Notes under the pieces: model-generated
What the model saw: the letters and a program-made list of their open reading frames with translations, nothing else
Told to the model about the DNA's origin: nothing
Database searches by the model: none
Shown here: positions 1,688 to 38,592 of the stretch, one piece after another
Layout of the letters: every line of letters starts with the position of its first letter
How positions within the stretch are numbered: the first letter of the stretch is position 1
NCBI GenBank assembly: GCA_015233115.1
Contig: JADFYJ010000002.1
Coordinates: 38,016-102,015 of the forward strand
DNA length: 64,000 bases
Direction: 5' to 3'
Source: Candidatus Omnitrophota bacterium
GTDB lineage: Bacteria > Omnitrophota > Gorgyraeia > Zapsychrales > Zapsychraceae
Made by a program: the position numbers and the translations under genes

Positions 1688-2255
1688 TCATCCGGTCATA
1701 TGAATCTGAATACAAATCAAACGTTGACACATTCCCTGCGCAAGTAAATTGATAACCTTTATTATTCACAATTGTCCAAATATGCTTCATCTTAAGGTTT
1801 CCTTTACCAGGAAATTTGACAATATAAGAAAATAAATACGCGGGTTGGCCTGATAATTGAGTAGGTTTTGATTCAATGACATCGATATTGTCTTTAAAAA
1901 CAACCCGTACCTGATTGATTGCCGTATCCGTATACTGATCTAATTGTTTGGGTGATTTTTCTAAATTATCAACCACAATATTAACTGATTCGGGAATAGG
2001 TAATGGCTTAGATCTCAAATTTTTAATCTTAGCTATAAACTGTGAACTCACACCAGGGACTGGGGGTGAAACAAGCCAATCCTCCGGATATATCAGGCTA
2101 TAATGATCTTTATCGCTTTTATAAATTTGGTACCCTTCAGGCGCGGTTTGAGTATTTCCCTTAAATAAAAAAAATCCAACAATGATAACAACAACCAGCC
2201 CTACTCCCAGCAAAATAAAAGTCAATTGATCTTTCTTTCTCATGTTATCCTCCAA
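1662..2255 (-). CDS. hypothetical membrane-anchored protein
   Basis: Single N-terminal TM helix (LTFILLGVGLVVVIIVGFFLF) followed by a ~165-aa soluble domain. No motif recognised. Confidence 0.4.
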   Translation of the reverse strand: MEDNMRKKDQLTFILLGVGLVVVIIVGFFLFKGNTQTAPEGYQIYKSDKDHYSLIYPEDWLVSPPVPGVSSQFIAKIKNLRSKPLPIPESVNIVVDNLEKSPKQLDQYTDTAINQVRVVFKDNIDVIESKPTQLSGQPAYLFSYIVKFPGKGNLKMKHIWTIVNNKGYQFTCAGNVSTFDLYSDSYDRMIESFKITR

Positions 2256-3022
2256 AATACCGCGTCGCCATCATGTTCAAAATTTTTGGGCGCGGTTAAT
2301 TTTTGAGCCGCGTCTTTATCTAAAAAATAATTGATTTTCCCCAGCCGAGGATGAACGCGTCCGGCAGGGACATCAATGTGGTCTTCGAGCATTTTCTTTA
2401 CAATATCTGCTTTCTGCCTTCCTGTTACCAAAAAACCAACTTGACTGGCGCTATTAATCGCAGAAAAAGTTAAAGAAATCCTTTTATGCTTGACCCGTGG
2501 ATCCTCAACGGCGCAAACCAAATCTTTTTTAATTTCATCCGGCAGATAATCAGGAAATAATGATGCGGTATGCCCGTCTTCTCCCAAGCCCAAAATGACC
2601 AAATCAAAATAGGGAGCAACACCTATTTTCTGAAAAAATTCCATCATATGCTTCTGAGATAAAGCCGCAGCTTGTAAAACATCTTTAGCTTCTGTAACAA
2701 AAGGATGAACATTCCCCTGAGGAATTGATAAAAAATCTAATAAACATTCCTTCTGTATCCGGTAATTGCTTTCTGAACTGTCTGGTGTAACAAACCGTTC
2801 ATCGGTCTGAAAAACCTGCACCCGGTTCCACAAATCCATATCACCAACACCGGCTAATTTCGAAAAAAACTCAATAGGGGTTTTACCGCCGGGCAAGGCC
2901 ACCATAAAACAGCCGCGGGCTTGAATAGCTTCTTCAGCCGCTTTAAGCCATAATTTCAGAAGATGATTGGTCAGCTTATGAGTATTATCAAAAATGAATA
3001 ATTCTTGAATGGGAAATGGCAT
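2240..3022 (-). CDS. pgl: 6-phosphogluconolactonase (NagB/6PGL family)
   Basis: ILGLGEDGHTASLFP motif, characteristic of 6PGL and glucosamine-6-P deaminase. Lies next to transketolase (pentose-phosphate context). Confidence 0.65.
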   Translation of the reverse strand: MPFPIQELFIFDNTHKLTNHLLKLWLKAAEEAIQARGCFMVALPGGKTPIEFFSKLAGVGDMDLWNRVQVFQTDERFVTPDSSESNYRIQKECLLDFLSIPQGNVHPFVTEAKDVLQAAALSQKHMMEFFQKIGVAPYFDLVILGLGEDGHTASLFPDYLPDEIKKDLVCAVEDPRVKHKRISLTFSAINSASQVGFLVTGRQKADIVKKMLEDHIDVPAGRVHPRLGKINYFLDKDAAQKLTAPKNFEHDGDAVFWRIT

Positions 3023-3035
3023 TCTTAATCTTGTC

Positions 3036-3117
3036 GTAGGGGCGATCTCCCGATCGCCCGCATAAAAATTATTAAAATTTTATATTTAATCGGACAGGTC
3101 GGGGACCAGTCCCTACG
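3036..3117. repeat. degenerate copy of GC-rich palindromic MITE-like element (family A)
   Basis: gtaggggcgatctcccgatcgcccgc, then an AT-rich spacer, then gtcggggaccagtccctacg. The left TIR is identical to those of the elements at ~4098 and ~38326. Confidence 0.55.
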
Positions 3118-3131
3118 CAAATCAATAAACA

Positions 3132-4073
3132 TTATTTTAATTTTCTCAAAACCGCTTTTTTTGCTGTATCGGCGATATTAACCGCTCTCAAGCCATATTT
3201 CGCCAACAATTCATCCGGCGAACCGGTTTCTCCGAAGGAATCATGGACCGCCACCATTTCCATTGGCACCGGATAATTTTGAACCACAACTTCAGCGACA
3301 GCGCTTCCTAAGCCGCCGGCCATCTGATGTTCTTCGCTGGTCACAATCGCGCCGGTTTCTTTGGCGGATTTGATAATTAAATCTTTATCAATAGGTTTGA
3401 TCGTATGCATATTAATCACTTTAGCCTGAATGCCTTGCTTGGCTAAAATTTCAGCAGCTTCCAAAGACTCGGAAACCATGAGCCCGCTTCCGATTAAAGT
3501 CACATCTTTCCCTTCGCGCATGACAATGCCTTTACCAATTTCGAAAGGTGTTTTTTCGTCTGTCAAAACCGGCACAGCATTGCGGCTTAGCCGTAAATAA
3601 AACGGTCCAAACTGTTCTGAAATAGCTTTGGTCGCTTTAGCTGCCTCGACAGTATCCACCGGACAAATGACCCGCATGTTCGGCAGGACGCGCATTAAGG
3701 CGAGATCTTCTAATGATTGGGCTGATGCCCCGTCTTCACCCACAGTCAACCCTGCATGCGTGCAAATAACCTTGACGTTTGTGTTGTTGTAACACACGTC
3801 CATGCGTAACATATCATACGCACGGTTAGTCATGAAAACAGCGAATGAATTAATGAATACTGTAAACCCTTGGAGAGCTAATCCAGCGGCAGTGCCGACC
3901 ATATCCTGTTCAGCGATACCAACGCTAAAAAACCGTCCAGGAAATTCTTTTTTAAAATATTCAGCGCGAGTCGCGTCTTCCAAATCCGCAGACACCATAA
4001 CAATTTTATCATTAACTTTCCCAAGCCTGACTAATTCTTCCCCAAATCCATCTCTTGTCGCAACTGGTTTCAT
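3132..4073 (-). CDS. transketolase, C-terminal subunit (pyrimidine-binding plus C-terminal domain)
   Basis: Sequence typical of the transketolase central and C-terminal domains (GIAEQDMVGTAAGLALQG, ICTHAGLTVGEDGASAQ). Split transketolase with the N-terminal subunit encoded directly upstream. Confidence 0.85.
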   Translation of the reverse strand: MKPVATRDGFGEELVRLGKVNDKIVMVSADLEDATRAEYFKKEFPGRFFSVGIAEQDMVGTAAGLALQGFTVFINSFAVFMTNRAYDMLRMDVCYNNTNVKVICTHAGLTVGEDGASAQSLEDLALMRVLPNMRVICPVDTVEAAKATKAISEQFGPFYLRLSRNAVPVLTDEKTPFEIGKGIVMREGKDVTLIGSGLMVSESLEAAEILAKQGIQAKVINMHTIKPIDKDLIIKSAKETGAIVTSEEHQMAGGLGSAVAEVVVQNYPVPMEMVAVHDSFGETGSPDELLAKYGLRAVNIADTAKKAVLRKLK

Positions 4074-4097
4074 TAATTTCTCCTGATAAAGTACTTT

Positions 4098-4227
4098 GTA
4101 GGGGCGATCTCCCGATCGCCCGCTTACAAAATATTCGCTTTTTTATTTCAATAAAACAAACAAAAAAACCTGAAATGTTAAATTTATAAATCTTTTATAG
4201 TGCGGGCGATCGGGAGATCGCCCCTAC
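4098..4227. mobile_element. MITE-like element, family A (~130 bp, 26-bp perfect terminal inverted repeats)
   Basis: gtaggggcgatctcccgatcgcccgc, then an ~80-bp AT-rich core, then gcgggcgatcgggagatcgcccctac. About 90% identical to the copy at ~38326-38468. Each TIR is itself internally palindromic. Confidence 0.7.
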
Positions 4228-4247
4228 TACAGCGTCATTATTTACTC

Positions 4248-5069
4248 TCAACTTAACTCTTTCAAAGCCGCAGCAAGTTGTTCATTATTCGGCGCTTTGC
4301 CGTGCCACGCTGATTTTAATTCCATAAATGATACGCCTTTACCTTTGATAGTATTAGCTATAATCACATAGGGTTTGCCGGCGTTTATTTTACCGAAATC
4401 CTGATATGCTTTTAAAACCTCTTCAATTTTATTTCCGTCGATTTCAGCGACCACCCATCCGAAACTTTCCCATTTGGCTTTCAAAGGTTCCAGATTCATG
4501 ATGTCATTGACCATGCCGTTTTCCTGAACCTTATTATAATCAACAATCGCGCACACATTATCGAGTTTAAACTGCGCCGCGCTCATGGCCGCTTCCCAAA
4601 CCGACCCTTCCTGAATTTCTCCGTCGCCCATCAAACAATACATTTTCTGGTCTTTTTTAAGCAATTTAGCGCCGATCGCCAAACCATTAGCCACAGCTAA
4701 ACCATGCCCTAAAGAACCCGTGTTGAATTCCACGCCCGGCGTTTTTGTGGTCACATGGCCTTGCAAAATCCCGCCTAATTTGCGGTATTTTTTATATTCA
4801 TCTTTGGAAAAATATCCCGCGTTTGCCAAAACCGAGTAAACAACCGGCGACACATGGCCTTTGGAAATAATCACCATATCGCGGCCCGGCCAGCGGGGAT
4901 TTTTCGGATCATGACGAAGCTGACAGTCATATAACGCGACTAATATTTCCACTGCGGATAAAGACCCACCCGGATGGCCTGAACCAGCCATATTCGTCAA
5001 TTCCAAAATCTCCTGACGCACTAACAGCGCCTTTTGTTTTAATGCGTTAATGTCACAACAATTTTGCAC
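4248..5069 (-). CDS. transketolase, N-terminal subunit (TPP-binding)
   Basis: GSGHPGGSLS and GDGE..EG TPP-binding motifs. 273 aa. Confidence 0.85.
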   Translation of the reverse strand: MQNCCDINALKQKALLVRQEILELTNMAGSGHPGGSLSAVEILVALYDCQLRHDPKNPRWPGRDMVIISKGHVSPVVYSVLANAGYFSKDEYKKYRKLGGILQGHVTTKTPGVEFNTGSLGHGLAVANGLAIGAKLLKKDQKMYCLMGDGEIQEGSVWEAAMSAAQFKLDNVCAIVDYNKVQENGMVNDIMNLEPLKAKWESFGWVVAEIDGNKIEEVLKAYQDFGKINAGKPYVIIANTIKGKGVSFMELKSAWHGKAPNNEQLAAALKELS

Positions 5070-5170
5070 AGTTTCACCTCATAAATATTAGGATTGATAT
5101 ACGATAAAATAGGACTTTAGGATACACCTTTTTGAAAGGAGCGTCAATGAGTTCTTATGAAAAAATTCAG

Positions 5171-5398
5171 GTCACAAGGACACAAAGTCACAAGGTCACA
5201 AATAAAAATAAAAGTACAAAATAAAAAAACGACTGGTAAGCAGTTAACACCGAAGATAACTCAAACTGGTGATAAAATTTTGTTACATGTTTGACAAGTT
5301 ATGACTTTGCGTATATTTTTTTTGGCATTATTATTCGTTTTTTCCGAATCTTTTCTATCCTTTGTGACCTTGTGACCTTGTGACTTTGTGACTTTGTC
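5171..5398. repeat. IR-flanked intergenic element, family B (TIRs are tandem gtcacaaR octamers)
   Basis: Left arm ggtcacaaggacacaaagtcacaaggtcacaa. Right arm cctttgtgaccttgtgaccttgtgactttgtgactttgtc. About 160-bp AT-rich core. The right arm supplies the stop codon of the large REC-domain gene. Confidence 0.6.
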
Positions 5399-8300
5399 TA
5401 CGCTTTACTTCCAGCCTTATCATTCATCAGTTCCGAGAAGATCGGCAGGCTGGAAGGCGCTATGGGTTTGATATCAATTATATACGGACTTAACCCGTCA
5501 ATTTTGATGCTATTGATATCCTGCATTTCCACGGGTAAAGGCACACCATTGCCATCGCGTTTAATCTGCATATTTAACATAGCCGCGTTTAAGTCGATAC
5601 CACCGACGTCGTCTCTTTTTAATTGCGCGCTATCGGATTCATTTTTCTTTTGAACAAATAAAGCGGCTATAGGATCTACCGCGGCATAAATGGCATTAAT
5701 ACCATCCAATTTAGAAACTAAGCCATCAATTTTTGCTCGCGATACCGCCAATTTAACTTCATCCGTATATGCGTTAGCACTTATAATAATTGATTTCACG
5801 GCGTCCATTCCAGGAATTTTCCGTATTGATTCAATCATTTGAACGCCAGTTTTATTTTTCATGTTATAATCCGAAAAAAGCAATTCAGGTTTAAATGCGC
5901 CATCTGATATTATTTTTTCAGCCTCTTCTGGAGAGCTGGCAAGAACAACTTCATAGCCTCTATCTTTTAAAACCATCTCATACAATTCTCTGGTAAATTG
6001 ATTATCATCCACCACCAAAACCTTCATGGCGCGATCAGCAGCACCGGCAGCAGCTAATTTAGGGCCAATAAGCCATGGTGTTTTTGGAGCAGTTGTAGCT
6101 TTAATATATTTAAATGTCATTTCAGCAATAGCCATAAAAAATTTTACGTTTGAATCAGAATCGAGATTTTTACCTTCAGGCGAATCCAAACGTTTTTGAA
6201 TATTTCCGATTGAAATATAAGAACTTCCGCCTTGCATTATTAGAGCAGCCCTAATTTGCGAATCTGTAGCATCAGCTAAGGCCACTACGTTTCCAGTCTT
6301 GGCTGCTTCCGCCGCTACCATAGGTTTTAAATACTTATTCACTTCATCAACTAATGTTTTGACAGTTTCATCCTTGATCGGTGTGAATGCACCCTTTTTC
6401 CCCAGCATAGCCTGATCTTGCTCTAATAGCCTCACAATTTCTTCCACAACCATATACCCAAACAAAGTTAAATCTTCTGTATCCTCCGGGTTTTCCCCAT
6501 AATTAAAAGTTTTGTAATTAACTATAATTTTTTCTCCCTTATCCTTCGCTTCTCGTAATCTCTTGGCTACAGCGAGTACAGCTTGTTCTTGTTTTTCTTC
6601 AGCACTATTATAATCTAAACCTGCTATATGAATTTCAAATTCTACCTGGGACTCTAATATACCGCTAATCGCTTTCGGCGAACGCATAAGCACCTTAAAT
6701 GCCTCAGCAAGTTCCCCTTCTTTCAAAGGTGCGGCTGTTAGCATAGCATTATCATTAAAAATGCCAGCTTGTATAACCGGCCTAAGCAAATCAGTCCCTT
6801 CTACATCTGTTTTTCCTTTTGCGTCAGTTACTAATCCTGATATAACATTTCGTCCATTGGCACTTAAATCAAAAAATACTTCAACTTTCGGATGCTTTAA
6901 TAGAAAATTTATAAAAGCTCTTATCTCTCTTTCATTTTCTTTGTTTGCTCCATTATTAAGGGCCGTTTGTAATTCATTAATCAATTTTTTATTATCCTGA
7001 ACGCCCGCCATATGATTGACAAAATTATGACCTTCTGTTTTCATAAATCGAACCAGTGAAGATGCCGCCTTCTTGATATCTCTTCCCGGATTCCGGCCGG
7101 TCAGCCCTTCATAAAGAAAAAAGTTCATAGCAGAAAATAAAATCAGAACCGCTAAGATCCGGGTTGTTCGGTTAAAATTAATCCCCTTATCAAGAGCACG
7201 AATTATAAAATCATCATCTTTATTTTCATTTTTCTGATAAGTCTCGTTAATGTGTTGAGCAATTGCAGTCGATAAAAGCTGGGGGGAATTTAAAATTTGC
7301 TCAAAAGTATAATATTTATTCTTATTTTGCGCATCCTTGACAAACTTCCCCTCACTTTTTTTTGATTCTTGATCAATTGCCAAACATGCTCCAATAATCA
7401 TTCCATCTAAACTAAATAGTACTGTCCTCACTACTGCGAGAGGTTCTTCACTCAATTGTTTTCTTACTGATTCCCGCACTAGCTCAGGGTCATTCGTCTT
7501 CAAAATTTCTTCCAACATGGCGCGATCTGCCTCATTAGGTATGAGGGCATTCAACTCAGTTTGTATACGCGGTTCTTCACCTGATGATTCAAACATTTTT
7601 GAATAACGAGTGATTAATTCCAATCCATTTGGTTTTTGAGAAATTCTTGACCGCTGACGATCCAAACTAATACCGACTTCATCGATCGTTCTTTTTGTTC
7701 CATATATCTCCAGCAATTCTCTCTCTCGGGCAGTTAAGCTATCTTCTCTTTTTACTAATAAAGCATTGTCCATCTTACCTATAACCCCACCTGAAAAATA
7801 TTTTCTGGGGATCACCTGCTGACTGGTTGGGTCGTATTCTTCCTTGATATAGTCGTACACGCCTTTTTTAAAGGCTTCTAAATACTGTTCATAAATTTTC
7901 TGATTGGCTTCTTTGTCCGTTAAATCCACACCTTTGACTTTGGTTTTATCCGCGTAAATTTTGCCTAAAAGGCTTTGTTTTAAAGTACGTTTATACCAAG
8001 CGGCTAAGATCATGGACTGATAGATCTGGCGCAATAAGGCGAAATGTTCTCCGGAATTAACTTCTTTTTCCAGGGCCGGAATAATGATTTCCCTCACGAC
8101 TTGAGTGGTTACTGTGCTGGACTGATCAAGTTCAGATGCCTGCATTTGATTCGCGCTAATGGCTTCATTATTTTTGTTTTTCTGCAGGGCAACATAATCT
8201 TTGTCCAACATCACTTTTAAACTGCTGTCTACAATCCAGGCCACATTGTCTTTTTCATAGACCACAGCTTTTTGCGGGACAATCCACACCTTATTAAAGG

Positions 8301-8832: not shown

Positions 8833-8942
8833 ATTTTTGCCCCCTTCTATAATAATCGGCCTACACTGAAAATATATACTATATTTGGAGAAAAACAAGA
8901 GCTGTAGGAAGATTATAAGAAAGCGGTTACAATAAAAAGTTA

Positions 8943-8973
8943 TAAAGGTGGTAAAGGTATAAAGGTGATAAAG
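8943..8973. repeat. tandem nonamer repeat (taaaggtgR x3.5), family G
   Basis: ataaaggtggtaaaggtataaaggtgataaagg. The reverse complement recurs at ~61366-61395. Confidence 0.4.
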
Positions 8974-8983
8974 GAAAATAAAA

Positions 8984-9030
8984 CTAAAAATAAAAAAGCC
9001 GCAGGTTGTGAACAATTATCCAACCTGCGG
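8984..9030 (-). terminator. rho-independent terminator downstream of the SET/speH-like operon
   Basis: Perfect 10-bp stem ccgcaggttg/caacctgcgg, followed on the minus strand by cttttttatttttag. Confidence 0.5.
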
Positions 9031-11916: not shown

Positions 11917-12034
11917 AAATTTAATTTTTTTGCTAATAATTTTCCATCTTCAACAGTTTTTTATGTATCGTAGGACTTTTTTAAATTGTCAATTGGTCAT
12001 TTTTATTTAGTTTTTGTCCCATCAATCGCTTTTT

Positions 12035-12069
12035 CTTTGTTACTCTGTTACTCTGTCACTCTGTTACTT
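12035..12069. repeat. solo arm of family C repeat (tandem gttactcN heptamers)
   Basis: ctttgttactctgttactctgtcactctgttactt, preceded by cccatcaatcgctttt as at ~14651. Overlaps the radC stop codon. Confidence 0.5.
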
Positions 12070-12755
12070 TATAACAATCCTTCATCCGCAAAACTGAAGT
12101 ACTTTTCTTCGGCAATAATGATATGGTCCAGAATTTTAACTTGGAGAGTCTCTCCTGCCATTTTAAGGCGCTCAGTAAAAACTTTGTCTTGTCTACTCGG
12201 AGTAGGATCGCCTGACGGGTGATTATGCGCGCAAATAACTGATGACGCGAAACACTCCATGGCTTTTTTATATATTTCACGAATAATAGGATTAACCTGA
12301 TTCACTGTTCCGGTTTGCTCTTCGCAAATATTTAAAATCCGGTTTTGGCTATCCAGATAAATAGTTTTAAAAATTTCAATTTTTAGATGACACACCTGTG
12401 GATAAATAATTTCAAATATTTGCTGTGATGATGAGATTTTAATTTTGTTATCCTGCCGCTCAACTTCCAAAAACCTGCGGCCGATTTCAATAGCCGCTTT
12501 AATCTGGGCTAATTTGGCCGGACCAATGCCTTTTATTTCTGTCCACTCTTTAACTGTCGCGCAACTCATATTACGGAAGGTTTTGAAGCGATCTAGTATG
12601 CTCCGGGATAAATCCAGCGCGGATTGCCCCCTAACACCTGTCCTCAATAAAATAGCCAAAAGTTCAGAACTTGATAGATTCTTTTCGCCGTATTTCGATA
12701 ATTTTTCCCGCGGACGGTCGTCAACAGGCCATTGATTAATTGGATAAACAGACAT
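12069..12755 (-). CDS. radC: RadC-like JAB-domain protein
   Basis: HNHPSGDPTPSRQDKVFTERL (JAMM/RadC motif). N-terminal helix-hairpin-helix-like region. Confidence 0.8.
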   Translation of the reverse strand: MSVYPINQWPVDDRPREKLSKYGEKNLSSSELLAILLRTGVRGQSALDLSRSILDRFKTFRNMSCATVKEWTEIKGIGPAKLAQIKAAIEIGRRFLEVERQDNKIKISSSQQIFEIIYPQVCHLKIEIFKTIYLDSQNRILNICEEQTGTVNQVNPIIREIYKKAMECFASSVICAHNHPSGDPTPSRQDKVFTERLKMAGETLQVKILDHIIIAEEKYFSFADEGLL

Positions 12756-12827
12756 ACTTCTCCCTTGTAATTCTAGGGAAGTATCTTGGTGGGGAAATGT
12801 GAGGAAAATTAATTATATCAAGTGAAA

Positions 12828-12981
12828 GGTCAGAAGTCAAACGTCAGACGATAAATAAGGGATGTGGGGCAAAAACGATTGCGTGAAAAACGATAATTTT
12901 GTTGCGGGAGATCAGGAGATCTCCCCTACGAAAAAAACGAATATCTTATTTCGCCTTTAAACTATTTTCCCTTTGTGACCT
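12828..12981. repeat. composite of repeat fragments (family B-like arms flanking a family A right TIR)
   Basis: ggtcagaagtcaaacgtcagacg ... gcgggagatcaggagatctcccctacg ... cctttgtgacc. Confidence 0.45.
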
Positions 12982-13006
12982 AAATAAGTTGGTTTCACAT
13001 ATACGA

Positions 13007-13309
13007 TTAGGTGAAAAAAATAACATATAACAAAATTAAAACAGCCACACCCATGGCCATATAAAAACGGTTATAATATATCAAATCCTGAATACGTTCT
13101 TGGGCGGAATATTCATACTGTACTGTTTCAACTTTAACAGAACCAACATTTTTTAAGTCCAAGACTTCTTCGTGCTTCAAACGCAAAAATTTATTCGCGA
13201 TTTTATATGCCTGTAATTTGCGTTCTTCAATCAGATCCATGACCTTGCGCTCGGTGACACCTAGCAATTGCGCGCTTTCCCGGACTGAAATATATTGAGG
13301 ACTATTCAT
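13007..13309 (-). CDS. excisionase/MerR-type HTH protein with C-terminal TM anchor
   Basis: The likely start is MNSPQYISVRESAQLLGVTERKVMDLIEERKL (HTH_17-like). C-terminal hydrophobic helix MAMGVAVLILLYVIFF. The track ORF begins earlier, at 13342. Confidence 0.45.
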   Translation of the reverse strand: MNSPQYISVRESAQLLGVTERKVMDLIEERKLQAYKIANKFLRLKHEEVLDLKNVGSVKVETVQYEYSAQERIQDLIYYNRFYMAMGVAVLILLYVIFFT

Positions 13310-13859: not shown

Positions 13860-14312
13860 TTATTGATGACTTTTATGTTTTTCTTTAAGTTTTGTTTCGA
13901 ACGGTTTAATTAAAATCAAAACAGAAGCCACGGCCGCCGTAATAAACATCGCCGTTTGATACATGCCGCATCCGACGGCAATACCTATTCCGGCTACAAT
14001 CCATAATGATGCCGCAGTGGTCAGCCCCATCACATGCGAATCACCCCGGAAAATCGCCCCGCCGCATAAAAAACCTATACCAGTAATAATTCCCGTGATA
14101 ATCCGGGCCGGATCCCCTTTAGTTGTCCCATTGTATATATCAGAAAGGTAAAAGGAAGTCAATACGAGGAGTGTCGTACTGACTCCGACCAAGATATGAG
14201 TGCGCAAACCCGCGTCTTTGAATTTCAGTTCGCGTTCTATTCCGATGACTCCGGACAAGAACATAATCAATCCCACCTTAGACATCACCTGCAAAATAGG
14301 CATTTCCGTCAT
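13860..14312 (-). CDS. mgtC: MgtC/SapB family membrane protein
   Basis: LIMFLSGVIGIERE..AGLRTHILVGVSTTLL is typical of the MgtC N-terminal domain. Confidence 0.65.
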   Translation of the reverse strand: MTEMPILQVMSKVGLIMFLSGVIGIERELKFKDAGLRTHILVGVSTTLLVLTSFYLSDIYNGTTKGDPARIITGIITGIGFLCGGAIFRGDSHVMGLTTAASLWIVAGIGIAVGCGMYQTAMFITAAVASVLILIKPFETKLKEKHKSHQ

Positions 14313-14324
14313 TGGTAACCTCCC

Positions 14325-14697
14325 TTATAGTAACCGAGTAACAAAGTAACAGAGCAAAAGCAAAAAACTATTGGTTTAAAAAACATAAAACCAAAAAGCC
14401 AGATTAACCGAATAACAAAGAAACCGAGCGAAAGTAGAAAACGATTGGTTTAAAACATACAAAACAAAAAAATCATAACTAAAAATTAATTTGAAAAAAT
14501 CAAATAAAGTAACATAAAAATCGTATTGAAAAACTTTGATAAAACAACTCGTAAACATCACTGTCTTTTATCTTTTAAAACCAATATTCCCATTCGTATT
14601 TAAATTTTTTCACCAATCTTTTTTTTCGCTGCCACTTTGACACGTTTTGTTTTTCACCCATCGCTTTTACTCTGTTACTCGGTTACTCGGTCACTTT
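14325..14697. mobile_element. IR-flanked element, family C (~370 bp)
   Basis: Left arm agtaaccgagtaacaaagtaacagag. Right arm ctctgttactcggttactcggtcact. Internal direct repeats aacNattggtttaaaa(a)cataNaaaac. The right arm encodes the last 6 codons and stop of tsaD. Confidence 0.6.
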
Positions 14698-15649
14698 TAA
14701 AATAGTATGCCAATCCCGCCACCATGGCCGCATTGTCTGTGCACAAGATCATGGGCGGAAAAAATACTTTAATCCCGCGCGTCTTTGCCTCTTCCGTCAA
14801 ATGATGACGCAAACACGAGTTAGCCGCAACGCCGCCGCCGATCACAATCGCCTTATTTTTTGTCTTTAAACACGCGTCAATGGTTTTACGAGTTATCACT
14901 TCAATAATACTTTCCTGAAATGAAAAAGCAAGGTCTGCTTTATTAAAATCAGGATCATGGCTGTGAGCTTTCAAATAATACAAAACCGCGGTCTTGATCC
15001 CGCTGAAACTAAAATCAAAACTATCCGGAAATGCCGCGCACTTTAAAGGGATACGTTGACCTTTGGACTGCTTTGCCAATTTATCAATCAAAGGGCCGCC
15101 CGGATATCCCAGCTCAAGAATCTTGGCCACTTTATCAAAGGCTTCGCCGACCGCATCGTCGCGCGACTGGCCCAGTAACTTAAAATTTTTAAAATCCTTA
15201 ATCTGGTAAATATTGGAATGCCCGCCGGAAACAACTAACCCGATACACGGCAAATCAGGGATTTCTTGCTTTTGTCCTTTAAAGGTAAGAAAATTCGCGT
15301 ATAAATGCGCCTTAATATGATCAATCAGAATAAGCGGTTTATTTAAGGCCAAACTTAAACCTTGGGCAAATGAGATGCCAACTAAAAGCGAGCCGATCAA
15401 ACCCGGATGCGAGGTCACGCTGAACGCGTCAATATCCGTCCAACGCAAACCAGCCTGCGACAAGCTTTCCTGTACCACGATATTAATGAATTCCAACTGG
15501 CGGCGGGAAGCGATCTCCGGAATCACTCCTCCGTACTTGGCGTGATCTTTAAGACTGGATGCTATCACGTTGGAATGGATTATTCTTCCATCTTCAACGA
15601 TCGAACATCCAGTCTCATCACACGAAGTTTCAATGCCTAAAATATACAT
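14675..15649 (-). CDS. tsaD: tRNA N6-adenosine threonylcarbamoyltransferase
   Basis: MYILGIETSCDETGCSIV N-terminus plus Kae1/TsaD family sequence throughout. Confidence 0.9.
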   Translation of the reverse strand: MYILGIETSCDETGCSIVEDGRIIHSNVIASSLKDHAKYGGVIPEIASRRQLEFINIVVQESLSQAGLRWTDIDAFSVTSHPGLIGSLLVGISFAQGLSLALNKPLILIDHIKAHLYANFLTFKGQKQEIPDLPCIGLVVSGGHSNIYQIKDFKNFKLLGQSRDDAVGEAFDKVAKILELGYPGGPLIDKLAKQSKGQRIPLKCAAFPDSFDFSFSGIKTAVLYYLKAHSHDPDFNKADLAFSFQESIIEVITRKTIDACLKTKNKAIVIGGGVAANSCLRHHLTEEAKTRGIKVFFPPMILCTDNAAMVAGLAYYFKSDRVTE

Positions 15650-24291: not shown

Positions 24292-24450
24292 ACGTATATA
24301 GTATGTGGTATGTGGTATGTGGTATATCGTAAAAACGAGAATTAATAATTTTGATCAAACGACAAAAAAAACGTATTTTATTCCTAATAAATTCTTAATT
24401 TGTCTCACCAATCGTTTTTCACCACATACGACATACCACATACTACATGC
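24292..24450. repeat. IR-flanked element, family D (TIRs are tandem gtatgtR heptamers), empty copy
   Basis: Left arm gtatgtggtatgtggtatgtggtat. Right arm accacatacgacataccacatactacatg. About 95-bp AT-rich core. The right arm supplies the mfd stop and last codon. Confidence 0.6.
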
Positions 24451-26341
24451 CATTTTTATTAATTGTAACGTTTTTCTTCAAGTTTTCCACCGATTCTTTT
24501 AATAATCGGCAGTACAAATCAAACCCTATGCTGGCAATATATCCATGCTGTTCCTGTCCCAAAAGATTCCCCGCTCCCCTCAATTGCATATCTTCAAACG
24601 CAATCTTAAACCCTGCTCCTAATTCACTGTATTTTTCGATCGCGTCAATTCTCGCTTGGCTTTCCTGGCTTAATGATTTATAGGCCGGGATCAAAAAATA
24701 AGCATAGGCTTCGCGAGTGAATCTTCCAACGCGCCCGCGTAATTGATGCAAATCAGCCAAGCCAAAGTGATCAGCCCGGTTAATAATTAGCGTATTAGCA
24801 TTAGGAATATCTATTCCTGATTCGATAATAGTGGTCGAAACCAAAACATCAATCGAGCCATCTAAAAATTGCAGCATAATTTTTTCCAAATCACGCGCGG
24901 ACATTTGCCCATGCCCAATGGCTATCCTCGCTTGCGGGACCAAACGTTTGATGATTGCTCCTATGTGCGCAATATCTTCCACCCGGTTATGAATAAAAAA
25001 CATCTGCCCATGCCGTTTTAATTCCCTTTCAATAGCTTCTTTAATTAAATCTTCGTCAAATTCTCGGACAAACGTTTTAACCGGTAGACGTTTTTGCGGC
25101 GGCGTTGTGATCACAGACATATCTTTTGCCCCGACTAAAGACATATGCAAGGTTCGCGGAATAGGAGTCGCGCTTAATGTCAACACATCAGCCAAAAGGC
25201 GGAAATGTTTGAGCCGTTCTTTAGCCTTAACTCCAAAACGCTGTTCCTCATCAATAATAATCAATCCCAAATCTTTAAACGCGATATCTTTGGACAAAAG
25301 CCGGTGCGTCCCAATGACGACGTCAACCTGGCCATCCGCTAATTCAATAACCGTTTTTTGCTGTTCAGCTTTAGTCCTAAAACGGCTCAACATAGCCACG
25401 CGAACTGGATATTTTTCCATGCGTTTGACAAAATTATAATAATGCTGTTCCGCTAAAATCGTGGTTGGAACCAAAATGGCGACTTGTTTGTGGTCCATCA
25501 CGGCTTTAAAAACCGCCCGCATCGCTACTTCGGTTTTTCCAAAACCGACATCCCCGCACAGAAGCCGGTCCATGGGCAGTTCAGACTCCATATCTTTTTT
25601 AACATCCGTTATGGCTTTTTTTTGATCATCCGTCTCTTCAAAAGGAAAACCTTTTTCAAAATCTTTTTGCCATGGAGTATCAAGAGAAAATGAATGTCCA
25701 CGCAAACTGGCACGCATAGCTTGAGTATGCAATAATTCCGCCGCCATTCTCTGCAAACGTTTTTGAATCTGTTGTTTAAGCCTTTTCCATTCCGGACTGC
25801 CGAGTTTATAAATCCGCGGCGGCCGTTTGTTAAAACTTAAGTATTTTTGAATCAGATGAATATCATGTTTGGGGACGAATAATTTATCTCCTCCCTGATA
25901 CTCAATAACAAAATGTTCTTTAACTTCATCACGGATCTCAATGGTTTGCAAACCGATGAAGCGGCCAATACCGTGATAATTATGGACAACATAATCGCCT
26001 TTTTGAATATCGACAAAATTATTAAGAGGAACGTCTTCAGAAAAAACCGCATTTTTGTTTTCAGGTTTATGAGGCAGGATAATCGCGATCTTGTGTTCCC
26101 AGATCACCTTACCGGAACGGATATTGACACTGGCAATTTTTTGGATCTTCTCATCATCAAAATCAACTCGGATAGGACCGTCAAAATTGACGGGATATAT
26201 TTGCAGAATTTCACCGTGGTGGGCATACTCGCCTTCCTTTAAGGCGTGCCGCACATGCTGGTAATGCATGGCCGCCAAATTGTTGAGGACAATATCCAGG
26301 GCAATCGTCTGTCCAACGAAAAGTTCGAGTGATTGGAACAT
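24443..26341 (-). CDS. mfd: transcription-repair coupling factor, short form lacking UvrB-homology module
   Basis: CarD/TRCF RNAP-interaction domain (GDYVVHNYHGIGRF). SF2 helicase motifs (GDVGFGKTEVAMRA, DEEQRFGV). C-terminal TRCF domain. 632 aa, with only 44 nt to the upstream gene. Confidence 0.8.
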   Translation of the reverse strand: MFQSLELFVGQTIALDIVLNNLAAMHYQHVRHALKEGEYAHHGEILQIYPVNFDGPIRVDFDDEKIQKIASVNIRSGKVIWEHKIAIILPHKPENKNAVFSEDVPLNNFVDIQKGDYVVHNYHGIGRFIGLQTIEIRDEVKEHFVIEYQGGDKLFVPKHDIHLIQKYLSFNKRPPRIYKLGSPEWKRLKQQIQKRLQRMAAELLHTQAMRASLRGHSFSLDTPWQKDFEKGFPFEETDDQKKAITDVKKDMESELPMDRLLCGDVGFGKTEVAMRAVFKAVMDHKQVAILVPTTILAEQHYYNFVKRMEKYPVRVAMLSRFRTKAEQQKTVIELADGQVDVVIGTHRLLSKDIAFKDLGLIIIDEEQRFGVKAKERLKHFRLLADVLTLSATPIPRTLHMSLVGAKDMSVITTPPQKRLPVKTFVREFDEDLIKEAIERELKRHGQMFFIHNRVEDIAHIGAIIKRLVPQARIAIGHGQMSARDLEKIMLQFLDGSIDVLVSTTIIESGIDIPNANTLIINRADHFGLADLHQLRGRVGRFTREAYAYFLIPAYKSLSQESQARIDAIEKYSELGAGFKIAFEDMQLRGAGNLLGQEQHGYIASIGFDLYCRLLKESVENLKKNVTINKNGM

Positions 26342-29344: not shown

Positions 29345-31357
29345 TTAAGGGTGAATTTTTTTTATTTTGCTCAGCAAATCCAATAACTGAGGATTCTGCG
29401 GATTCAGGTTCAAACCAGCCTGCACAGCCGTAACGGCATCATCGTAACGGTTCATATGCTCCAAAAATTTAACGAGTTTTATATAGGCAGGCACATAAGA
29501 CTGATCGATCTTAAGTGCCTGGATATAAAAGTCAAATGCACAGACAGCCTTTTTTGCTGTTACACAAATATCTCCCGCATTTACTAAATTTTTTTTATCC
29601 TTCAATTCCCGCAATAGTTGTTGCGACCAATTTTGAAATTGCTCCTCATGCCCGGTAAGATAAAACATTCTTAATAAATTCAATTTGGTTAACTCATCAG
29701 CTGGCTCGATGTCCAAACTTTTTTCATACATTTGGGCCGCTTTTATAAAATTTTTTTCTTTTTCATAAATAGAGGCTAAATTATCAACGACTATCTTTTG
29801 ATCTGGGTCCAAAGCCATCGCTTTTTCAAATTCAATTTTTGCCATTTCATTGTTTTCCAAATCACGGTACGCGGCGCCCAAGTTGCTATAACTAATAGCT
29901 TGATGAGGTTCCACTGCTATGGCTTTTTTAAAATAAGTTACGGCTAAATCAATTTTTTTTTCGTTAGCCGCGATGACTCCCAAATTAACTAAATATTTCC
30001 ACTGATTAGGTAAATCGCCCAAAGATTTATTGAACAATTCATAAGATTCAGAATAATTTTTTTTATTAAAATAAGCGTTAGCCTGAAAACCATCAATCAA
30101 ATCAAATTTTTTAGTTAAAATATGTGACCGCCAAAAATTACAATAGTTAATTTCATCGCTCCAAATATTGTTCATAACCCACGACTGACTGATCAGAGCC
30201 ACCACCATGCTTGCGATCAAACCAGGCGTTAAAATTGTTGAAACTTTCTTCCCTAAATTATCCAATAACCATGCGGTTAATGCAAAAAAACCAATAGAAT
30301 TAAAAAATAACCAATGAGGCTCCAAAACGATTCCAACACGGCTAAACGACAAAGACGCCAAAAAAACCGGAATAATCCCTAGAATAAAAAATAAAAGCAA
30401 AAAACCATATACGTATATCTGCTGCTGCATCCATTTAATAATCATCCAACCCATTATGATAAAAAAGAACAACAACGCGGTAATCCACGCTGGCGCCCCT
30501 TGGACTACAACCGGCGTTCCCCAGATTAATACCACTCCCCTGGGATAAAATAATTGGCTCACATACCAAAACCAAGCTTTAGAAACCGTTGCTATAAACT
30601 GCCACGGAGAAATCCCCATAGTTTGATATATTTTCCAATACGAACCGCCCACGTCAGAAAATCTCATCCGGAATAATAAAATAAATCCTAAGATAATAAA
30701 AAATAAAGCACAATATTTAAATGTTTGGCGGATGGATAAGCGGTGAACCATCAAACACAACGCGGCCGCGTAAAATGGTAAAAAATACGCTGTTTCATGA
30801 CACAAGCAGGATAACAAATAAAAAATTCCCGCTAACCCCATCATGCCCCACTTAACCAGCCCTTTCCCCGAATATATGATACTTTTATGCATCAGCCACA
30901 AAGATGCCGCCATAAAAATCAACTGAACAATCAGCACGTTAGCCGTTATGTAATTCACTAACATCCCATTAATGGGGTGAACACAAAACAAAATTGCCGT
31001 GACCCCTGCCACCCAAAATTGGCGGGTCAAAGTCGACAAAAAAATGAAAATAAAAATACAAAGAATGGCAAAAAGGAAACAATTTAAAACATGATAACCA
31101 GTAGGATTATAGTGGAACAACGCAAAATATCCGACTTGCAGCACACTCCGTAAGGGACGAAAATGAGCAGAACCGCTGCTATCAGCTAATCCCTTGCCAG
31201 AAGCAAAAGCAAAAAATAAATTTTTGATATTATGCGTATGATAATTTGCTACAAAATGATTACCATCATCCATCATAAAGGCATTATGCAAACTATTGAA
31301 ATACGTCAAAAACGAAAGAAACAACAGCGTTACGATTATACCAATATTTTTTTTCAT
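29345..31357 (-). CDS. TMTC-like membrane protein: N-terminal GT-C (PMT/DUF1736-like) polytopic domain plus C-terminal TPR repeats, paralog 1
   Basis: LTYFNSLHNAFMMDDGNHFVANY..HFRPLRSV matches the YxNSLxNxFVWDD..HxRPL pattern of TMTC/PMT_2 family proteins. About 10 TM segments, then TPR motifs. Confidence 0.55.
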   Translation of the reverse strand: MKKNIGIIVTLLFLSFLTYFNSLHNAFMMDDGNHFVANYHTHNIKNLFFAFASGKGLADSSGSAHFRPLRSVLQVGYFALFHYNPTGYHVLNCFLFAILCIFIFIFLSTLTRQFWVAGVTAILFCVHPINGMLVNYITANVLIVQLIFMAASLWLMHKSIIYSGKGLVKWGMMGLAGIFYLLSCLCHETAYFLPFYAAALCLMVHRLSIRQTFKYCALFFIILGFILLFRMRFSDVGGSYWKIYQTMGISPWQFIATVSKAWFWYVSQLFYPRGVVLIWGTPVVVQGAPAWITALLFFFIIMGWMIIKWMQQQIYVYGFLLLFFILGIIPVFLASLSFSRVGIVLEPHWLFFNSIGFFALTAWLLDNLGKKVSTILTPGLIASMVVALISQSWVMNNIWSDEINYCNFWRSHILTKKFDLIDGFQANAYFNKKNYSESYELFNKSLGDLPNQWKYLVNLGVIAANEKKIDLAVTYFKKAIAVEPHQAISYSNLGAAYRDLENNEMAKIEFEKAMALDPDQKIVVDNLASIYEKEKNFIKAAQMYEKSLDIEPADELTKLNLLRMFYLTGHEEQFQNWSQQLLRELKDKKNLVNAGDICVTAKKAVCAFDFYIQALKIDQSYVPAYIKLVKFLEHMNRYDDAVTAVQAGLNLNPQNPQLLDLLSKIKKIHP

Positions 31358-33393
31358 TTATTATGTATTTTACTCTCGGCCTGCCATTGCCGTATTTCAC
31401 GCATCAATTGCAATAGCTGAGAATGGTTCGGATTCATTTTTAATCCCATTCGGACAGTCATTAAAGCGTCATCAAACCTCCCCATATTTCCCAATAACTT
31501 TCCAAACTCGACATATACCAAGGCATACGCCGGATCAACCTTCACGGCCTTTGTATAAAAATCCACGGCCAACATAACCTGGTTTGCCAATGCGCAAACA
31601 TCTCCAGCGGAAACGAGATTATTTTTATCATTCACTTCTTTTATCAGCTGTTCAGAATAACTTTTAAATTTTTCAATATTTTTTTCATTATAATACAATT
31701 TTAATAAATTTAATTTTAAGCCCTCTTCAGCCGGTTCAATCTCTAACGCTTTTTCATAAAGTTTTTCCGCCGCTTTAAAATTTTTCTCCTTCACATAACA
31801 AAGCGCCAAATCTTCAACTGTAGCCATTTCATTTGGATCCAAATCAAAAGCTCTTTCAAAGGCCAACCTGGCTTGATCATTCTTTCCTAACTCCCGATAG
31901 GCAACACCCAAATTCGTATAGATAGCAGCTTTATTAGGTTCCAAATCAATAGCTTTTTTAAAATAAGTTATGGCCACATCAAATTTTTTCTCATTAAGCT
32001 CAATTAAGCCTAAATTCACTAAACTTTTCCACTGATAAGGCAAATCAGCCAATGATTTTTCAAATAATGGCCGGGATTTGGAATAAAACTTTTTTTTAAA
32101 ATATGCCGTGGCTTGAAAAAAATCTATCAAATAAAAATTTCGGACTAAAATATTTGATCGCCAAAAATCACAATATTTTATTTCATCCCCCCATATACTG
32201 TTCATCACCCACGTCTGGCTTAACAGAGCAAAAACAATACTTGCGATTAACCCGAATGTTAATATTTTAGAAACTTTTTTCGTCAAACGAACCAACAACC
32301 ATGCCGCCACCACAAAAAAACCAATAGTATTAAAATAGACCCAATGCGGTTCCATAACAATACCTATGTCACGGAATAACATCGCAGCCAAAAACGTAGG
32401 AACAAAACCCAATGTCAATAACAGAACAAAAAAACCAAAAACATTTTTTTGATCACGAATTAATTTTAAAATCGCGAAAATAATCCCCCCCCAAAAAAGC
32501 ATTAACGCCGCGATCCAGACCCATACCATGCCAGAGACCACAGCAGGTGTGGCCCATATCAACACTACTCCTTGAGGATATAACAATTGGCCTAAATACC
32601 AAAACCAAACTTTTGAAACTGAAGCAAAATACTGCCCTGGATTTATTCCCATGCTTTGATATGTCTGCCATAACGAACCACCCACGTCAAAATACTTAAC
32701 CCGGAATAACAAAATTAAACCTAATACAAGAAAAAGAACAAAACAGTATTTTATAGTTTGACGAATAGATAATCGATGAACAACCAAACAAAGTGCTGCC
32801 GCATAAAAAGGAAGGAAATATGCCGTCTCATGACACAAACAAGACAATAAATATAAAAACCCAGCTAATCCAAGCAACCCACACTTAACAAATGTTACTG
32901 ACGAAGAAACAATACTCCGCTGGACTAAACCCAAAGATGCCATCATAAAAATCAACTGCACGATAAGTCCATTTGCCGTAATATAATTCACCAACATCCC
33001 ATTGATCGGATGAACACAAAATAATACCGCGGTTACTGCTGACACCCAGAAATCTTTGGTGAGATCCAGCGAAAAAAAGAAGATAAAAACACAAAAAATA
33101 AAGAAAAGAATGCAGTTTAAAACATGATAACCAAAAGAGTTATATTGGAATAAAACGAAGTTGATGACTATGATAATACTATGTAGGGGACGAAAATGCG
33201 TTGCCCCGGTTTCAATCACTGATCCCTTACTGGAGGTAAAAACTGAAAATAAATTTTTGATATTATGCGTATTATAATTTGACACAAAGTGACTAGCATC
33301 ATCCATCATAAACGCATTATGCAAACTGTTAAAATAAGTCAGAAAGGACACCAGCAGCAAAGCTAATATCAAAAAAATATTTTTTTTCGACAT
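31354..33393 (-). CDS. TMTC-like GT-C/TPR membrane protein, paralog 2 (tandem duplicate)
   Basis: Same architecture. By alignment with paralog 1 the likely start is MSKKNIFLIL (~33393); the track ORF begins at 33462. Stretches of >80% nucleotide identity to paralog 1 near the 5' ends. Confidence 0.55.
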   Translation of the reverse strand: MSKKNIFLILALLLVSFLTYFNSLHNAFMMDDASHFVSNYNTHNIKNLFSVFTSSKGSVIETGATHFRPLHSIIIVINFVLFQYNSFGYHVLNCILFFIFCVFIFFFSLDLTKDFWVSAVTAVLFCVHPINGMLVNYITANGLIVQLIFMMASLGLVQRSIVSSSVTFVKCGLLGLAGFLYLLSCLCHETAYFLPFYAAALCLVVHRLSIRQTIKYCFVLFLVLGLILLFRVKYFDVGGSLWQTYQSMGINPGQYFASVSKVWFWYLGQLLYPQGVVLIWATPAVVSGMVWVWIAALMLFWGGIIFAILKLIRDQKNVFGFFVLLLTLGFVPTFLAAMLFRDIGIVMEPHWVYFNTIGFFVVAAWLLVRLTKKVSKILTFGLIASIVFALLSQTWVMNSIWGDEIKYCDFWRSNILVRNFYLIDFFQATAYFKKKFYSKSRPLFEKSLADLPYQWKSLVNLGLIELNEKKFDVAITYFKKAIDLEPNKAAIYTNLGVAYRELGKNDQARLAFERAFDLDPNEMATVEDLALCYVKEKNFKAAEKLYEKALEIEPAEEGLKLNLLKLYYNEKNIEKFKSYSEQLIKEVNDKNNLVSAGDVCALANQVMLAVDFYTKAVKVDPAYALVYVEFGKLLGNMGRFDDALMTVRMGLKMNPNHSQLLQLMREIRQWQAESKIHNK

Positions 33394-33400
33394 AATATTA

Positions 33401-33757
33401 TCATTGGAGCGGTATGGTTCTATAAAAACACGATCTTTGATTAGTGTGACATGCGGCATCAACTTGTTCTACTTTAATTAAAAGGCAATCGCAGTCGCAG
33501 TCATAGCAGACTTCTTTGACAAATTGAAAATGCCCGGACGTCATGCCTTTAACCCAAAATTCCTGCCGAGAACGGGACCAATAGCACGCTTTTTTATCTG
33601 TTAACGTCCGACGAAGTGATTCATTATTCATCCAGGCCATCATCAAAACATCACCGTTCTTGACATCCTGAACGATAACCGGAATGAGCCCTTCTCGAGA
33701 ATATTTAAGCTGTTCAAGACTATCTATCGTAATTATTAATTCTTCAGGTTTGGTCAT
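33401..33757 (-). CDS. hisI: phosphoribosyl-AMP cyclohydrolase
   Basis: [30 protein letters not shown] and a Cys-rich metal site. Confidence 0.85.
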
Positions 33758-35839: not shown

Positions 35840-35866
35840 AATTTAATCCGAATTTTGATGGTTCAC

Positions 35867-36002
35867 GTATGTCGTACGTAGTATGTGGTATGTAGCGAAA
35901 AAAATCAAAATAATATTTTTAAAAAACTGGATTCCCACCTTCGCGGGAATGACAAGTCTAATCGTTTTTCGCTCTACATACGCATACCACATACTACATA
36001 CC
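35867..36002. repeat. IR-flanked element, family D, empty copy between hisH and hisB
   Basis: Left arm gtatgtcgtacgtagtatgtggtatgtagc. Right arm ctctacatacgcataccacatactacatacc. Internal attccc-acct-tcgc-gggaat hairpin. Confidence 0.6.
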
Positions 36003-36007
36003 ATTTT

Positions 36008-36619
36008 TTAATCAATTATTCCCTTCGTCGACGGGATCATATTGGGTCTGGAGGGATTGATACGGGTCGCTTCATGTAAAGCCAGACCCAAAGCCTTAAA
36101 AGCGGCTTCCATATTTGTATGCAGATCTTCGCTGGTTCCCTCGATCTTGACATTGATCGTCGCGCCAAGGTTATGCGCAAAAGATTCGAGGAAATGTTCC
36201 AGGTAAGCCATGGCGTAGCCATCTTCATTCTTAATATTAACTTTTTCCAAATTATCAATAACCAGGGTTAAATATCCCCGACCGCTGATATCCACAACTG
36301 CGCGGCCCAACGTCGATTCCATAGGCGCGAACGCGGAACCAAAACGTTTGATGCCTTGCATGTCGCCTAAAGCTTTTTTAAATAATTTACCCAGCACAAT
36401 TCCAATATCTTCATTGGTGTGATGAATATCAATTTCCAAATCAGCTTTTTTAACTGCCAAGTCTAAATCAAAACACGCGTGAAAAGCGAAAAGGTCCAAC
36501 ATATGATCTAACAAACCAATGTTAGTTTTAACTTGAGTCTTCCCTTGCCCGTCGATATTCAACGATGCAATAATCTCAGTTTCTTTGCTTTTTCTCTCAA
36601 TCTGTGCTGTTCGATTCAT
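36008..36619 (-). CDS. hisB: imidazoleglycerol-phosphate dehydratase
   Basis: RTAQIERKSKETEI...HH..ED IGPD motifs. 203 aa, monofunctional. Confidence 0.9.
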   Translation of the reverse strand: MNRTAQIERKSKETEIIASLNIDGQGKTQVKTNIGLLDHMLDLFAFHACFDLDLAVKKADLEIDIHHTNEDIGIVLGKLFKKALGDMQGIKRFGSAFAPMESTLGRAVVDISGRGYLTLVIDNLEKVNIKNEDGYAMAYLEHFLESFAHNLGATINVKIEGTSEDLHTNMEAAFKALGLALHEATRINPSRPNMIPSTKGIID

Positions 36620-36637
36620 ATGTTTTGTCCTATAAAA

Positions 36638-37073
36638 GTATGTGGTATGTAGTATGTCGTATGTAGTAAAAACTACAATTTTTTAATCAAAGCCTTTGTC
36701 ATTTTAGATACAGATTCGAGATCTTGCAATATCGGTTTCGATAATTCAGATTTTAAAAAACCTAATTCTACTGAAATTATAACCTGTGTTTCTAACTCAG
36801 CAACTGAACCCATAACAATATATAAAAACTGTCGATTTTTTTATTATGATATCTTCTAAAACCTTCTGCGATATTTGATGGTATCGAGATGGCTGCCCTT
36901 CGCATTTGAGATACTAATCCAAACTGTTCTTCTTGAGGATAATTTTTTGTGACTTTATAAATATTTTTTACTATTTCAACACCAAACTTCCAAATTCTTA
37001 AATCCTGATAAGTTGTTATCTTTTCGTCCATTGCTTTCCCACCACATACGACATACCACATACTACATACTAT
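36638..37073. mobile_element. IR-flanked element, family D, loaded copy carrying a four-helix-bundle protein gene
   Basis: Left arm gtatgtggtatgtagtatgtcgtatgtagta. Right arm accacatacgacataccacatactacatact. Same TIR family as the empty copies at ~24292 and ~35867. Confidence 0.6.
36680..37061 (-). pseudogene. four-helix-bundle protein (23S rRNA intervening-sequence protein family), frameshifted
   Basis: The track ORF 36792-37061 ends at ...AISIPSNIAEGFRRYHNKKIDSFYILLWVQLLS. The +2 frame continues QFLYIVMGSVAELETQVIISVELGFL...KMTKALIKKL, which is the conserved C-terminal half (GSxxELETQ). A single-nucleotide indel lies in the aaaaaaatcgacagttttt tract. Confidence 0.7.
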
Positions 37074-37075
37074 TT

Positions 37076-38299: not shown

Positions 38300-38325
38300 T
38301 GTCTTGGAAATCCTTGTAAAGTGTT

Positions 38326-38468
38326 GTAGGGGCGATCTCCCGATCGCCCGCTTACAAAATATACGCTTTTTTATCTAGATAAAACAAACAAAAAAACTAA
38401 ACCTAAAAACCCTGGAATGTTAAATTTGTAAATCTTTTTGGTACGGGCGATCAGGAGATCGCCCCTAC
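38326..38468. mobile_element. MITE-like element, family A (~143 bp, 26-bp TIRs)
   Basis: gtaggggcgatctcccgatcgcccgc, then an AT-rich core, then gtacgggcgatcaggagatcgcccctac. Sibling of the copy at ~4098. Confidence 0.7.
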
Positions 38469-38475
38469 GACCAAG

Positions 38476-38558: not shown

Positions 38559-38592
38559 GTGAGCAGGGCAACAGCATCCCATCTGTCATTCT

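Follow-up and report, generated by a model that had tools for sequence, protein, structure and literature searches.

What kind of element separates the two transketolase subunit genes of this Omnitrophota bacterium? For the 64-kb stretch of DNA analyzed as a whole (the window; 40% G+C), an earlier note had proposed a Correia- or REP-like family of palindromic MITEs with perfect 26-bp terminal inverted repeats (TIRs), present in two full and three partial copies. We find that the repeats are very probably GTAG-type REPs, occurring singly or in head-out REPIN/BIME-like doublets, non-autonomous and presumably mobilized in trans by a REP-associated tyrosine transposase (RAYT). The assignment to the REP class rests on the structural criteria tested and on the absence of the units from relatives. 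REPs and REPINs are well characterized in Proteobacteria and GTAG repeats are catalogued in eight phyla; for Omnitrophota, a candidate phylum that only metagenomes have revealed, no prior description of REPs was found in the literature searched.

The 26-mer that forms the arms of the elements, GTAGGGGCGATCTCCCGATCGCCCGC, has six matches in the window at up to three mismatches, four of them exact (3036+, 4098+, 4227- and 38326+) and two inexact (38468- with two mismatches and 12929- with three). Dinucleotide-preserving shuffles of the window gave 0 matches, so the repeat family and its two full copies are real. Each arm is itself a hairpin, as the earlier note had it: the type called REP-A here consists of GTAG followed directly by an 8-bp GC-rich stem (GGGCGATC/GATCGCCC) with a 4-nt loop. 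As an operational criterion for REPs we took that of Quentin et al. (PMC6006769), which asks for GT[AG]G 0 to 2 nt before a fully paired stem of 7 to 20 nt, a loop of 2 to 5 nt and at least three G/C among the first four stem bases. The scan returned seven perfect units and one with a single stem mismatch (3092-3116), i.e., eight units counted in the window alone against 0.1 expected from first-order Markov simulations, which supports the description as REP-like. GTAG abuts the stem in type A and in the unit ending at 3116 (offset 0 nt) and stands 1 nt away from it in the one ending at 61326; units are 24 to 26 nt long and all of them are extragenic, lying between open reading frames with Pfam-supported identities (Table 1).

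Table 1. REP units, doublets and short tandem arrays in the 64-kb window.
Feature	Position	Strand	Composition	Flanking genes
Full head-out REP doublet, 130 nt	4098-4227		REP-A 4098-4123 (+), 78-nt spacer 4124-4201, REP-A 4202-4227 (-)	tktN (stop 4248) and tktC (start 4073)
Second full REP doublet, 143 nt	38326-38468		REP-A 38326-38351 (+), 91-nt spacer 38352-38442, REP-A 38443-38468 (-, 2 mismatches)	alaS (stop 38593) and hisD (start 38299)
Hybrid doublet, 81 nt	3036-3116		REP-A 3036-3061 (+), 30-nt AT spacer 3062-3091, REP-B 3092-3116 (-)	tktC (stop 3132; 15 nt) and pgl (start 3022)
Solo REP-A' GTAGGGGAGATCTCCTGATCTCCCGC	12904-12929	-	found by sequence similarity alone	78 nt after stop of HTH-domain gene; radC
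Solo REP-B GTAGGGGAGGGTCCCCGACCCTCC	61303-61326	-	8-bp stem, 3-nt loop, 1 nt between GTAG and stem	52 nt past uvrA stop; upstream of TPR gene
Tandem 8-9-nt arrays	12024-12078, 14329-14431, 14659-14705, 58721-58765, 8934-8993, 61348-61407			gene boundaries

The second hairpin type, REP-B (stem GGAGGGTC/GACCCTCC), has the GTAGGG head in common with REP-A. Its two copies, of which the one in the hybrid doublet (GTAGGGACTGGTCCCCGACCTGTCC) has a 9-bp stem with one mismatch, also carry a common ATTTTTAWTC tail, and the region of the solo copy was 76% identical with 3082-3118, including that flanking tail. The fifth site had been described as a partial or solo TIR at 61314-61337; it lies instead at 61303-61326 and is a different hairpin, with only the GTAGGG head in common with the 26-mer, pairing in sequence with the right arm of the hybrid doublet. 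The sites at 3036 and 12904, named in the same claim, do carry 26-mer matches. In the specific case of the solo REP-A', two of the three differences from the 26-mer compensate each other within the stem (C:G to A:T, giving GGGAGATC/GATCTCCC where the other REP-A units have GGGCGATC/GATCGCCC) and the remaining one falls in the loop, so that sub-families of stems related by complementary substitution exist within the window. This unit further has a spacer-like tail of about 25 nt (down to about 12880) that resembles the start of the doublet spacer.

The arms of the transketolase doublet are 26 nt long and 100% complementary, whereas those of the alaS-hisD doublet are 28 nt long and 93% complementary, so that the claim of identical 26-bp TIRs holds for the former and fails at the right arm of the latter. 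The AT-rich spacers of the two align over their full length with about 10 substitutions in 78 nt and a 14-nt indel (about 87% identical; the earlier figure of about 90% was roughly right). Sequence outside the arms does not align between the two full copies, and they are therefore discrete repeats and not a segmental duplication, as had been anticipated. The arms agree at 50 of 52 positions and the spacer at about 68 of 78, a sample too small to make a case for selection on the arms. A shared ACTTTA..AGGA extension past the GTAG end was considered and dropped, being absent from the other units and overlapping the ribosome-binding sites of the downstream genes.

Perfect 26-bp inverted repeats around an AT-rich core of 78 to 91 nt, 130 to 143 nt in total, could also be drawn as a Correia-like or other TIR-type MITE, derived by deletion from an insertion sequence and mobilized by a DDE transposase that binds the 26-bp terminal repeats, and size and outline do agree with bacterial MITEs as summarized by Di Nocera et al. 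(2013, PMC3733652). The junctions, however, show no flanking duplication (...ACTTT|GTAG...CTAC|TACAG and ...GTGTT|GTAG...CTAC|GACCA), the arm is itself a GTAG-plus-hairpin unit, and this unit occurs alone at 12904-12929 and paired with a different hairpin in the hybrid doublet, which a TIR-binding transposase does not predict. Furthermore, no transposase, whether of IS or DDE type or any other, came up in Pfam scans of all the window ORFs of 100 aa or more. With the target duplication missing and solo and mixed units present, the MITE reading fails, and we regard it as very unlikely. Correia elements belong to the TIR-type MITEs and duplicate a TA target, and a transcribed Correia element can form a long duplex that is a possible RNase III substrate. 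The Neisseria elements (CREE/NEMIS) do resemble the window's doublets in size, in having inverted ends of 26 bp and in lying between genes within transcription units; they differ in that the window copies lack the duplication, have GTAG-hairpin ends that are found singly too, and are unrelated to them in sequence.

The GTAG-tagged REP families reviewed by Di Nocera et al. (PMC3733652), which include the E. coli REP/BIME with TnpAREP/RAYT, have like the window's units a terminal GTAG, a G+C-rich stem of 6 to 13 bp and a short loop; they are 20 to 40 nt long, extragenic and mostly downstream of coding regions, and form head-out (HH) dimers with conserved spacers of 20 to 100 nt as well as, in Stenotrophomonas maltophilia, hybrid dimers. 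Sub-families with complementary stems are likewise described there. What differs is the host, here a 40%-GC Omnitrophota MAG, the very AT-rich spacer, and the lack of a cognate RAYT in view; the window stem sequence was not found in the text supplements of that study. The REPINs of Pseudomonas fluorescens (Bertels and Rainey 2011, PMC3116915) also consist of two inverted REPs and a spacer forming one hairpin of about 100 to 140 nt, are read as non-autonomous and moved by a single-copy RAYT, and leave singletons that look like remnants, much as the unit ending at 12929 keeps part of a spacer. All three arm spacings in Table 1 lie within the REPIN/BIME limit of 150 nt. Unlike P. fluorescens, with hundreds of copies and a RAYT flanked by REPINs (PMC3116915), the window displays two full copies.

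With respect to genomic context, we observe that nearly all supported genes of the window are on the minus strand, and three of the elements are inside apparent operons (tktN-tktC-pgl and alaS-hisD). Positions of the two full copies between the transketolase subunit genes and between alaS and hisD are as previously stated, while the copy placed earlier at the 3' end of pgl is in fact 3' of tktC and 5' of pgl, the flanking genes all being on the minus strand. The + strand has a GC skew of -0.12 to -0.20 throughout. All six singleton REPs examined, three in the window and three in the relative GCA_015233195.1, have their GTAG on the G-rich strand, here the sense strand. By the usual skew rule the sense strand here would be the lagging-strand template, on which HUH/Y1 transposases of the IS200/IS605 type act. 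The orientation of the singletons fits lagging-strand-template targeting, an agreement that is inseparable from the direction of transcription.

Both full doublets fold end to end, as DNA and as sense-strand RNA. The transketolase doublet forms one long hairpin, with DNA energies of -38 to -43 kcal/mol (z -9.4 to -10.4) and a sense-strand RNA energy of -70.5 kcal/mol (z about -12); the alaS-hisD doublet gives z of -7 to -8 as DNA and -68 kcal/mol (z -10.7) as sense-strand RNA, so the RNA-fold check named in the earlier note came out positive for both. The two mismatches between the arms of the alaS-hisD doublet become G-U pairs in the sense-strand RNA, leaving its 26-bp stem fully paired, and two sites are too few to argue for selection from this. 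The same pairing, together with the sense orientation of units just past stop codons (tktC, uvrA and the HTH gene, at the distances in Table 1), would also suit hairpins selected by the host as terminators, attenuators or mRNA stabilizers, arisen in place and immobile. We give this explanation hardly any credence: it is not possible for unrelated loci to have acquired identical 26-mers and an about 87%-identical 78-nt spacer independently, the same operon junctions in relatives have spacers of 0 to 44 nt, and a U tract is lacking after every hairpin, whichever strand is read. A terminator scan of 2000-5500 and 37000-39000 on both strands, which holds six of the eight hairpins, reported no REP hairpin, and the stems, those of the two solo units elsewhere in the window included, are followed by GCAC.., GCTT.., CTAC.. 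and CTGAA... Since the U tract is missing and elements lie inside operons, the hairpins are not intrinsic terminators, contrary to one of the roles suggested before.

The alaS-hisD doublet adjoins, 3' of alaS, a G+C-rich tandem direct repeat (38468-38558) of two 41-nt copies 50 nt apart and 83% identical (GACGCAATGTCCG...TAGTGC...AAGCTCCC). The fold of this repeat is not significant (z about +1), the window holds no other copy of it, and the 32- to 44-nt alaS-hisD spacers of the relatives lack it.

We compared these sites with a syntenic relative, GCA_015233195.1 (loci L047, L082 and L086; 79 to 89% protein identity, with synteny over 61 kb), and with more distant Omnitrophota, L083 for alaS-hisD only and L084 and L085 for tktN-tktC and the region downstream of tktC. 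In the syntenic relative tktN and tktC overlap (TAATG), as the tkt genes also do in L084, whereas a spacer of 174 nt separates them in the window; the tktC-pgl spacer measures 12 nt against 109 nt, and for the alaS-hisD spacer, 293 nt long in the window, L082 has 44 nt and L083 has 32 nt. Neither the latter spacer of L083 nor the 35-nt tktN-tktC spacer of L085 holds a REP, and REP-B is absent from the orthologous uvrA-TPR spacer of L086, which has other content. In all, the window's units are absent at four orthologous sites of GCA_015233195.1 and at the one or two sites compared in each of L083, L084 and L085. As units missing at orthologous sites in relatives, the window's REPs are, on this sequence comparison, best described as lineage-specific insertions, and the earlier idea of a mobile family gains support. 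Because the relatives differ by 11 to 25% in protein, an "empty site" indicates lineage-specific gain or loss and not recent transposition. Subtracting the 130-nt element from the tktN-tktC interval of the window leaves a 44-nt spacer that still ends in AGGAG-N6-ATG and is close to that of L085, a resemblance by which the doublet acts as a discrete insertion. The repeats thereby account for the unusually long spacers within conserved operons of this MAG.

GCA_015233195.1 has three REPs of its own, with an identical GTAGGGGC head and geometry and other stems, two of which are related by compensatory change (GGGCACGA/TCGTGCCC versus GGGCACAA/TTGTGCCC). These match the turnover pattern known for REP families. 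One solo REP of this genome (L082 9950-9980, GTAGGGGCACGATACTTCGTGCCC) reaches into the end of alaS, whose annotated stop codon is the TAG within the GTAG of the REP. The uvrA-TPR spacer of the same genome (L086 9723-10000, 278 nt) contains a G+C-rich segment of about 130 nt between inverted repeats (AAAAGACTTAGGTATTT / AAATACCTGCGTCTTTT) as well as a CCCCTCTCC...GGGGAGAGGGTTAGGGTGAGGGG hairpin, both of them other small inserted elements.

Beyond this phylum, a collection with one genome per species (596 Gb, the source MAG not among them) was scanned with the pattern GTAGGGGMGATCTCCYGATCKCCC. It has 51 exact copies at 46 loci in eight genomes, where about 0.03 chance matches were calculated: two Gordonibacter species, an Eggerthellaceae MAG and five Clostridia MAGs, all with 55 to 72% G+C. 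No Omnitrophota genome in the collection matched, and the nearest relative, GCA_015233195.1, has no such stem. In Gordonibacter and the Clostridia MAGs the 24-mer of the window is present, identical, in several copies; this sharing with unrelated gut bacteria is the one unusual feature of the repeats. Head-out doublets of 65 to 104 nt are found in the matching genomes too, as is a compensatory stem variant (GGGCGCTC/GAGCGCCC, in Gordonibacter copies), and their spacers are unrelated to those of the window. Further scans for this sequence were negative: viral contigs gave 0 matches to the 24-mer, blastn of a 146-nt element against plasmids gave only AT-rich chance matches to the spacer, and a literal search of the literature returned only unrelated primers. 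At the gathering threshold Rfam reported only tRNA-Met, no family matching the repeats, and at an E-value threshold only far-sub-threshold look-alikes of plant miRNA precursors, which amounts to "a long hairpin". A metagenome scan with GATCKCCCGCWWACAAAAT, spanning the REP tail and the start of the spacer, gave 34 loci, all attributed to chance since none had a GTAG hairpin upstream; the pattern was too degenerate.

One tentative, on balance doubtful, explanation of the shared hairpin is that a single REP-RAYT lineage moved horizontally between Actinomycetota (Gordonibacter and Eggerthellaceae), Bacillota (several Clostridia) and this Omnitrophota bacterium, keeping the 24- to 27-nt hairpin and rebuilding the spacer to the composition of each host. 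Convergence on a short constrained hairpin is possible as well, and would make the sharing an ordinary finding. Vertical inheritance is what is mostly described for REPIN-RAYT systems, whereas the window's REP is common to distant phyla; if the sharing reflects transfer of a REP-RAYT pair, it would bear on the debate on vertical inheritance by contradicting the usual picture of long-term, vertically inherited residents, and would offer a natural experiment on a REP population re-establishing itself in a new genome. The identical 24-mer could also be a conserved binding site of a shared host factor or of another HUH enzyme, with no mobilization by a RAYT, and the lack of any RAYT in 350 kb around the cross-phylum copies points that way. 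We consider this very improbable, however, as the stems covary within genomes, the closest Omnitrophota relative has other stems behind its identical head, and no candidate factor is known. Stems that vary and covary behind one head suggest that structure is kept rather than sequence, as in REPs.

Reading the repeats as REPs calls for a transposase, and none was recovered in the sequence covered, i.e., the window and loci L001 to L047 (about 380 kb). Pfam scans of all window ORFs of at least 100 aa contain no RAYT or Y1 transposase; tblastn with an E. coli RAYT and an IS200 TnpA gave only noise in the window and L001 to L046; and a scan for the HUH...Y..NP motif in six frames of the window and L001 to L047 was empty. 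In the Gordonibacter and Clostridia loci, REP pairs 250 to 2,500 nt apart enclosed one candidate interval, which encodes an MFS transporter (Pfam) and no RAYT. With no RAYT in the sequence searched, mobilization by such an enzyme is what we infer. Under this reading the non-autonomous elements would spread via a single-stranded DNA stage. The lagging-strand template, while transiently single-stranded, would expose GTAG and hairpin to a REP-associated tyrosine (HUH/Y1) transposase, supplied by a gene in another part of the genome, which would recognize the element, cut it and join it again. Both the dependence on a RAYT and this route are proposed. Inserted between co-transcribed genes, the elements would be carried on the mRNA, where doublets could form 26-bp perfect duplexes expected to act as barriers to 3' exonucleases or as RNase III sites, not as terminators; a putative effect at the mRNA level, as stabilizer or processing site, is plausible. 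The repeats would in this way place 26-bp perfect duplexes in polycistronic mRNAs of central-metabolism genes, and they are also likely break points for short-read assembly.

The window and its relatives hold further small elements. A second, unrelated intergenic family consists of inverted arrays of three to five tandem 8-nt units (GTATGTGG... / ...CCACATAC) bracketing 50 to 370 nt. Between hisD and hisB (36634-37074) such octamer arms enclose a frameshifted 23S_rRNA_IVP ORF (PF05635; E 8e-22 and 2e-5). At 24298-24453 and 35866-36009 these arms recur with no ORF between them, and at 5171-5392 the layout is built from other octamers. The layout is reminiscent of 23S rRNA intervening sequences, which consist of a stem and an IVP ORF, here situated within operons. 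Where the window carries the IVP pseudogene, the his operons of related Omnitrophota have other small ORFs inserted at the equivalent junctions. In L082 these are a DUF559/MTES_1575 gene and a 499-aa ORF without a Pfam family (12766-13128 and 13909-15408), and in L083 an intact 144-aa 23S_rRNA_IVP/bAvd gene (4620-5054).

In addition, short arrays of 8- to 9-nt tandem units (TTACTCTG, AGTAACMG and AAAGGTGGT) lie at gene boundaries (Table 1). Some of them are complementary to arrays tens of kilobases away, as are those starting at 8934 and 61348 (85% over 60 nt); the latter is 22 nt from the solo REP-B. Tandem paralogues are found in the window as well, namely two TPR genes (29345-31357 and 31354-33462; 71 to 73% over 300-nt blocks) and two pilin-like genes (47917-48351 and 48403-48834; 89%).
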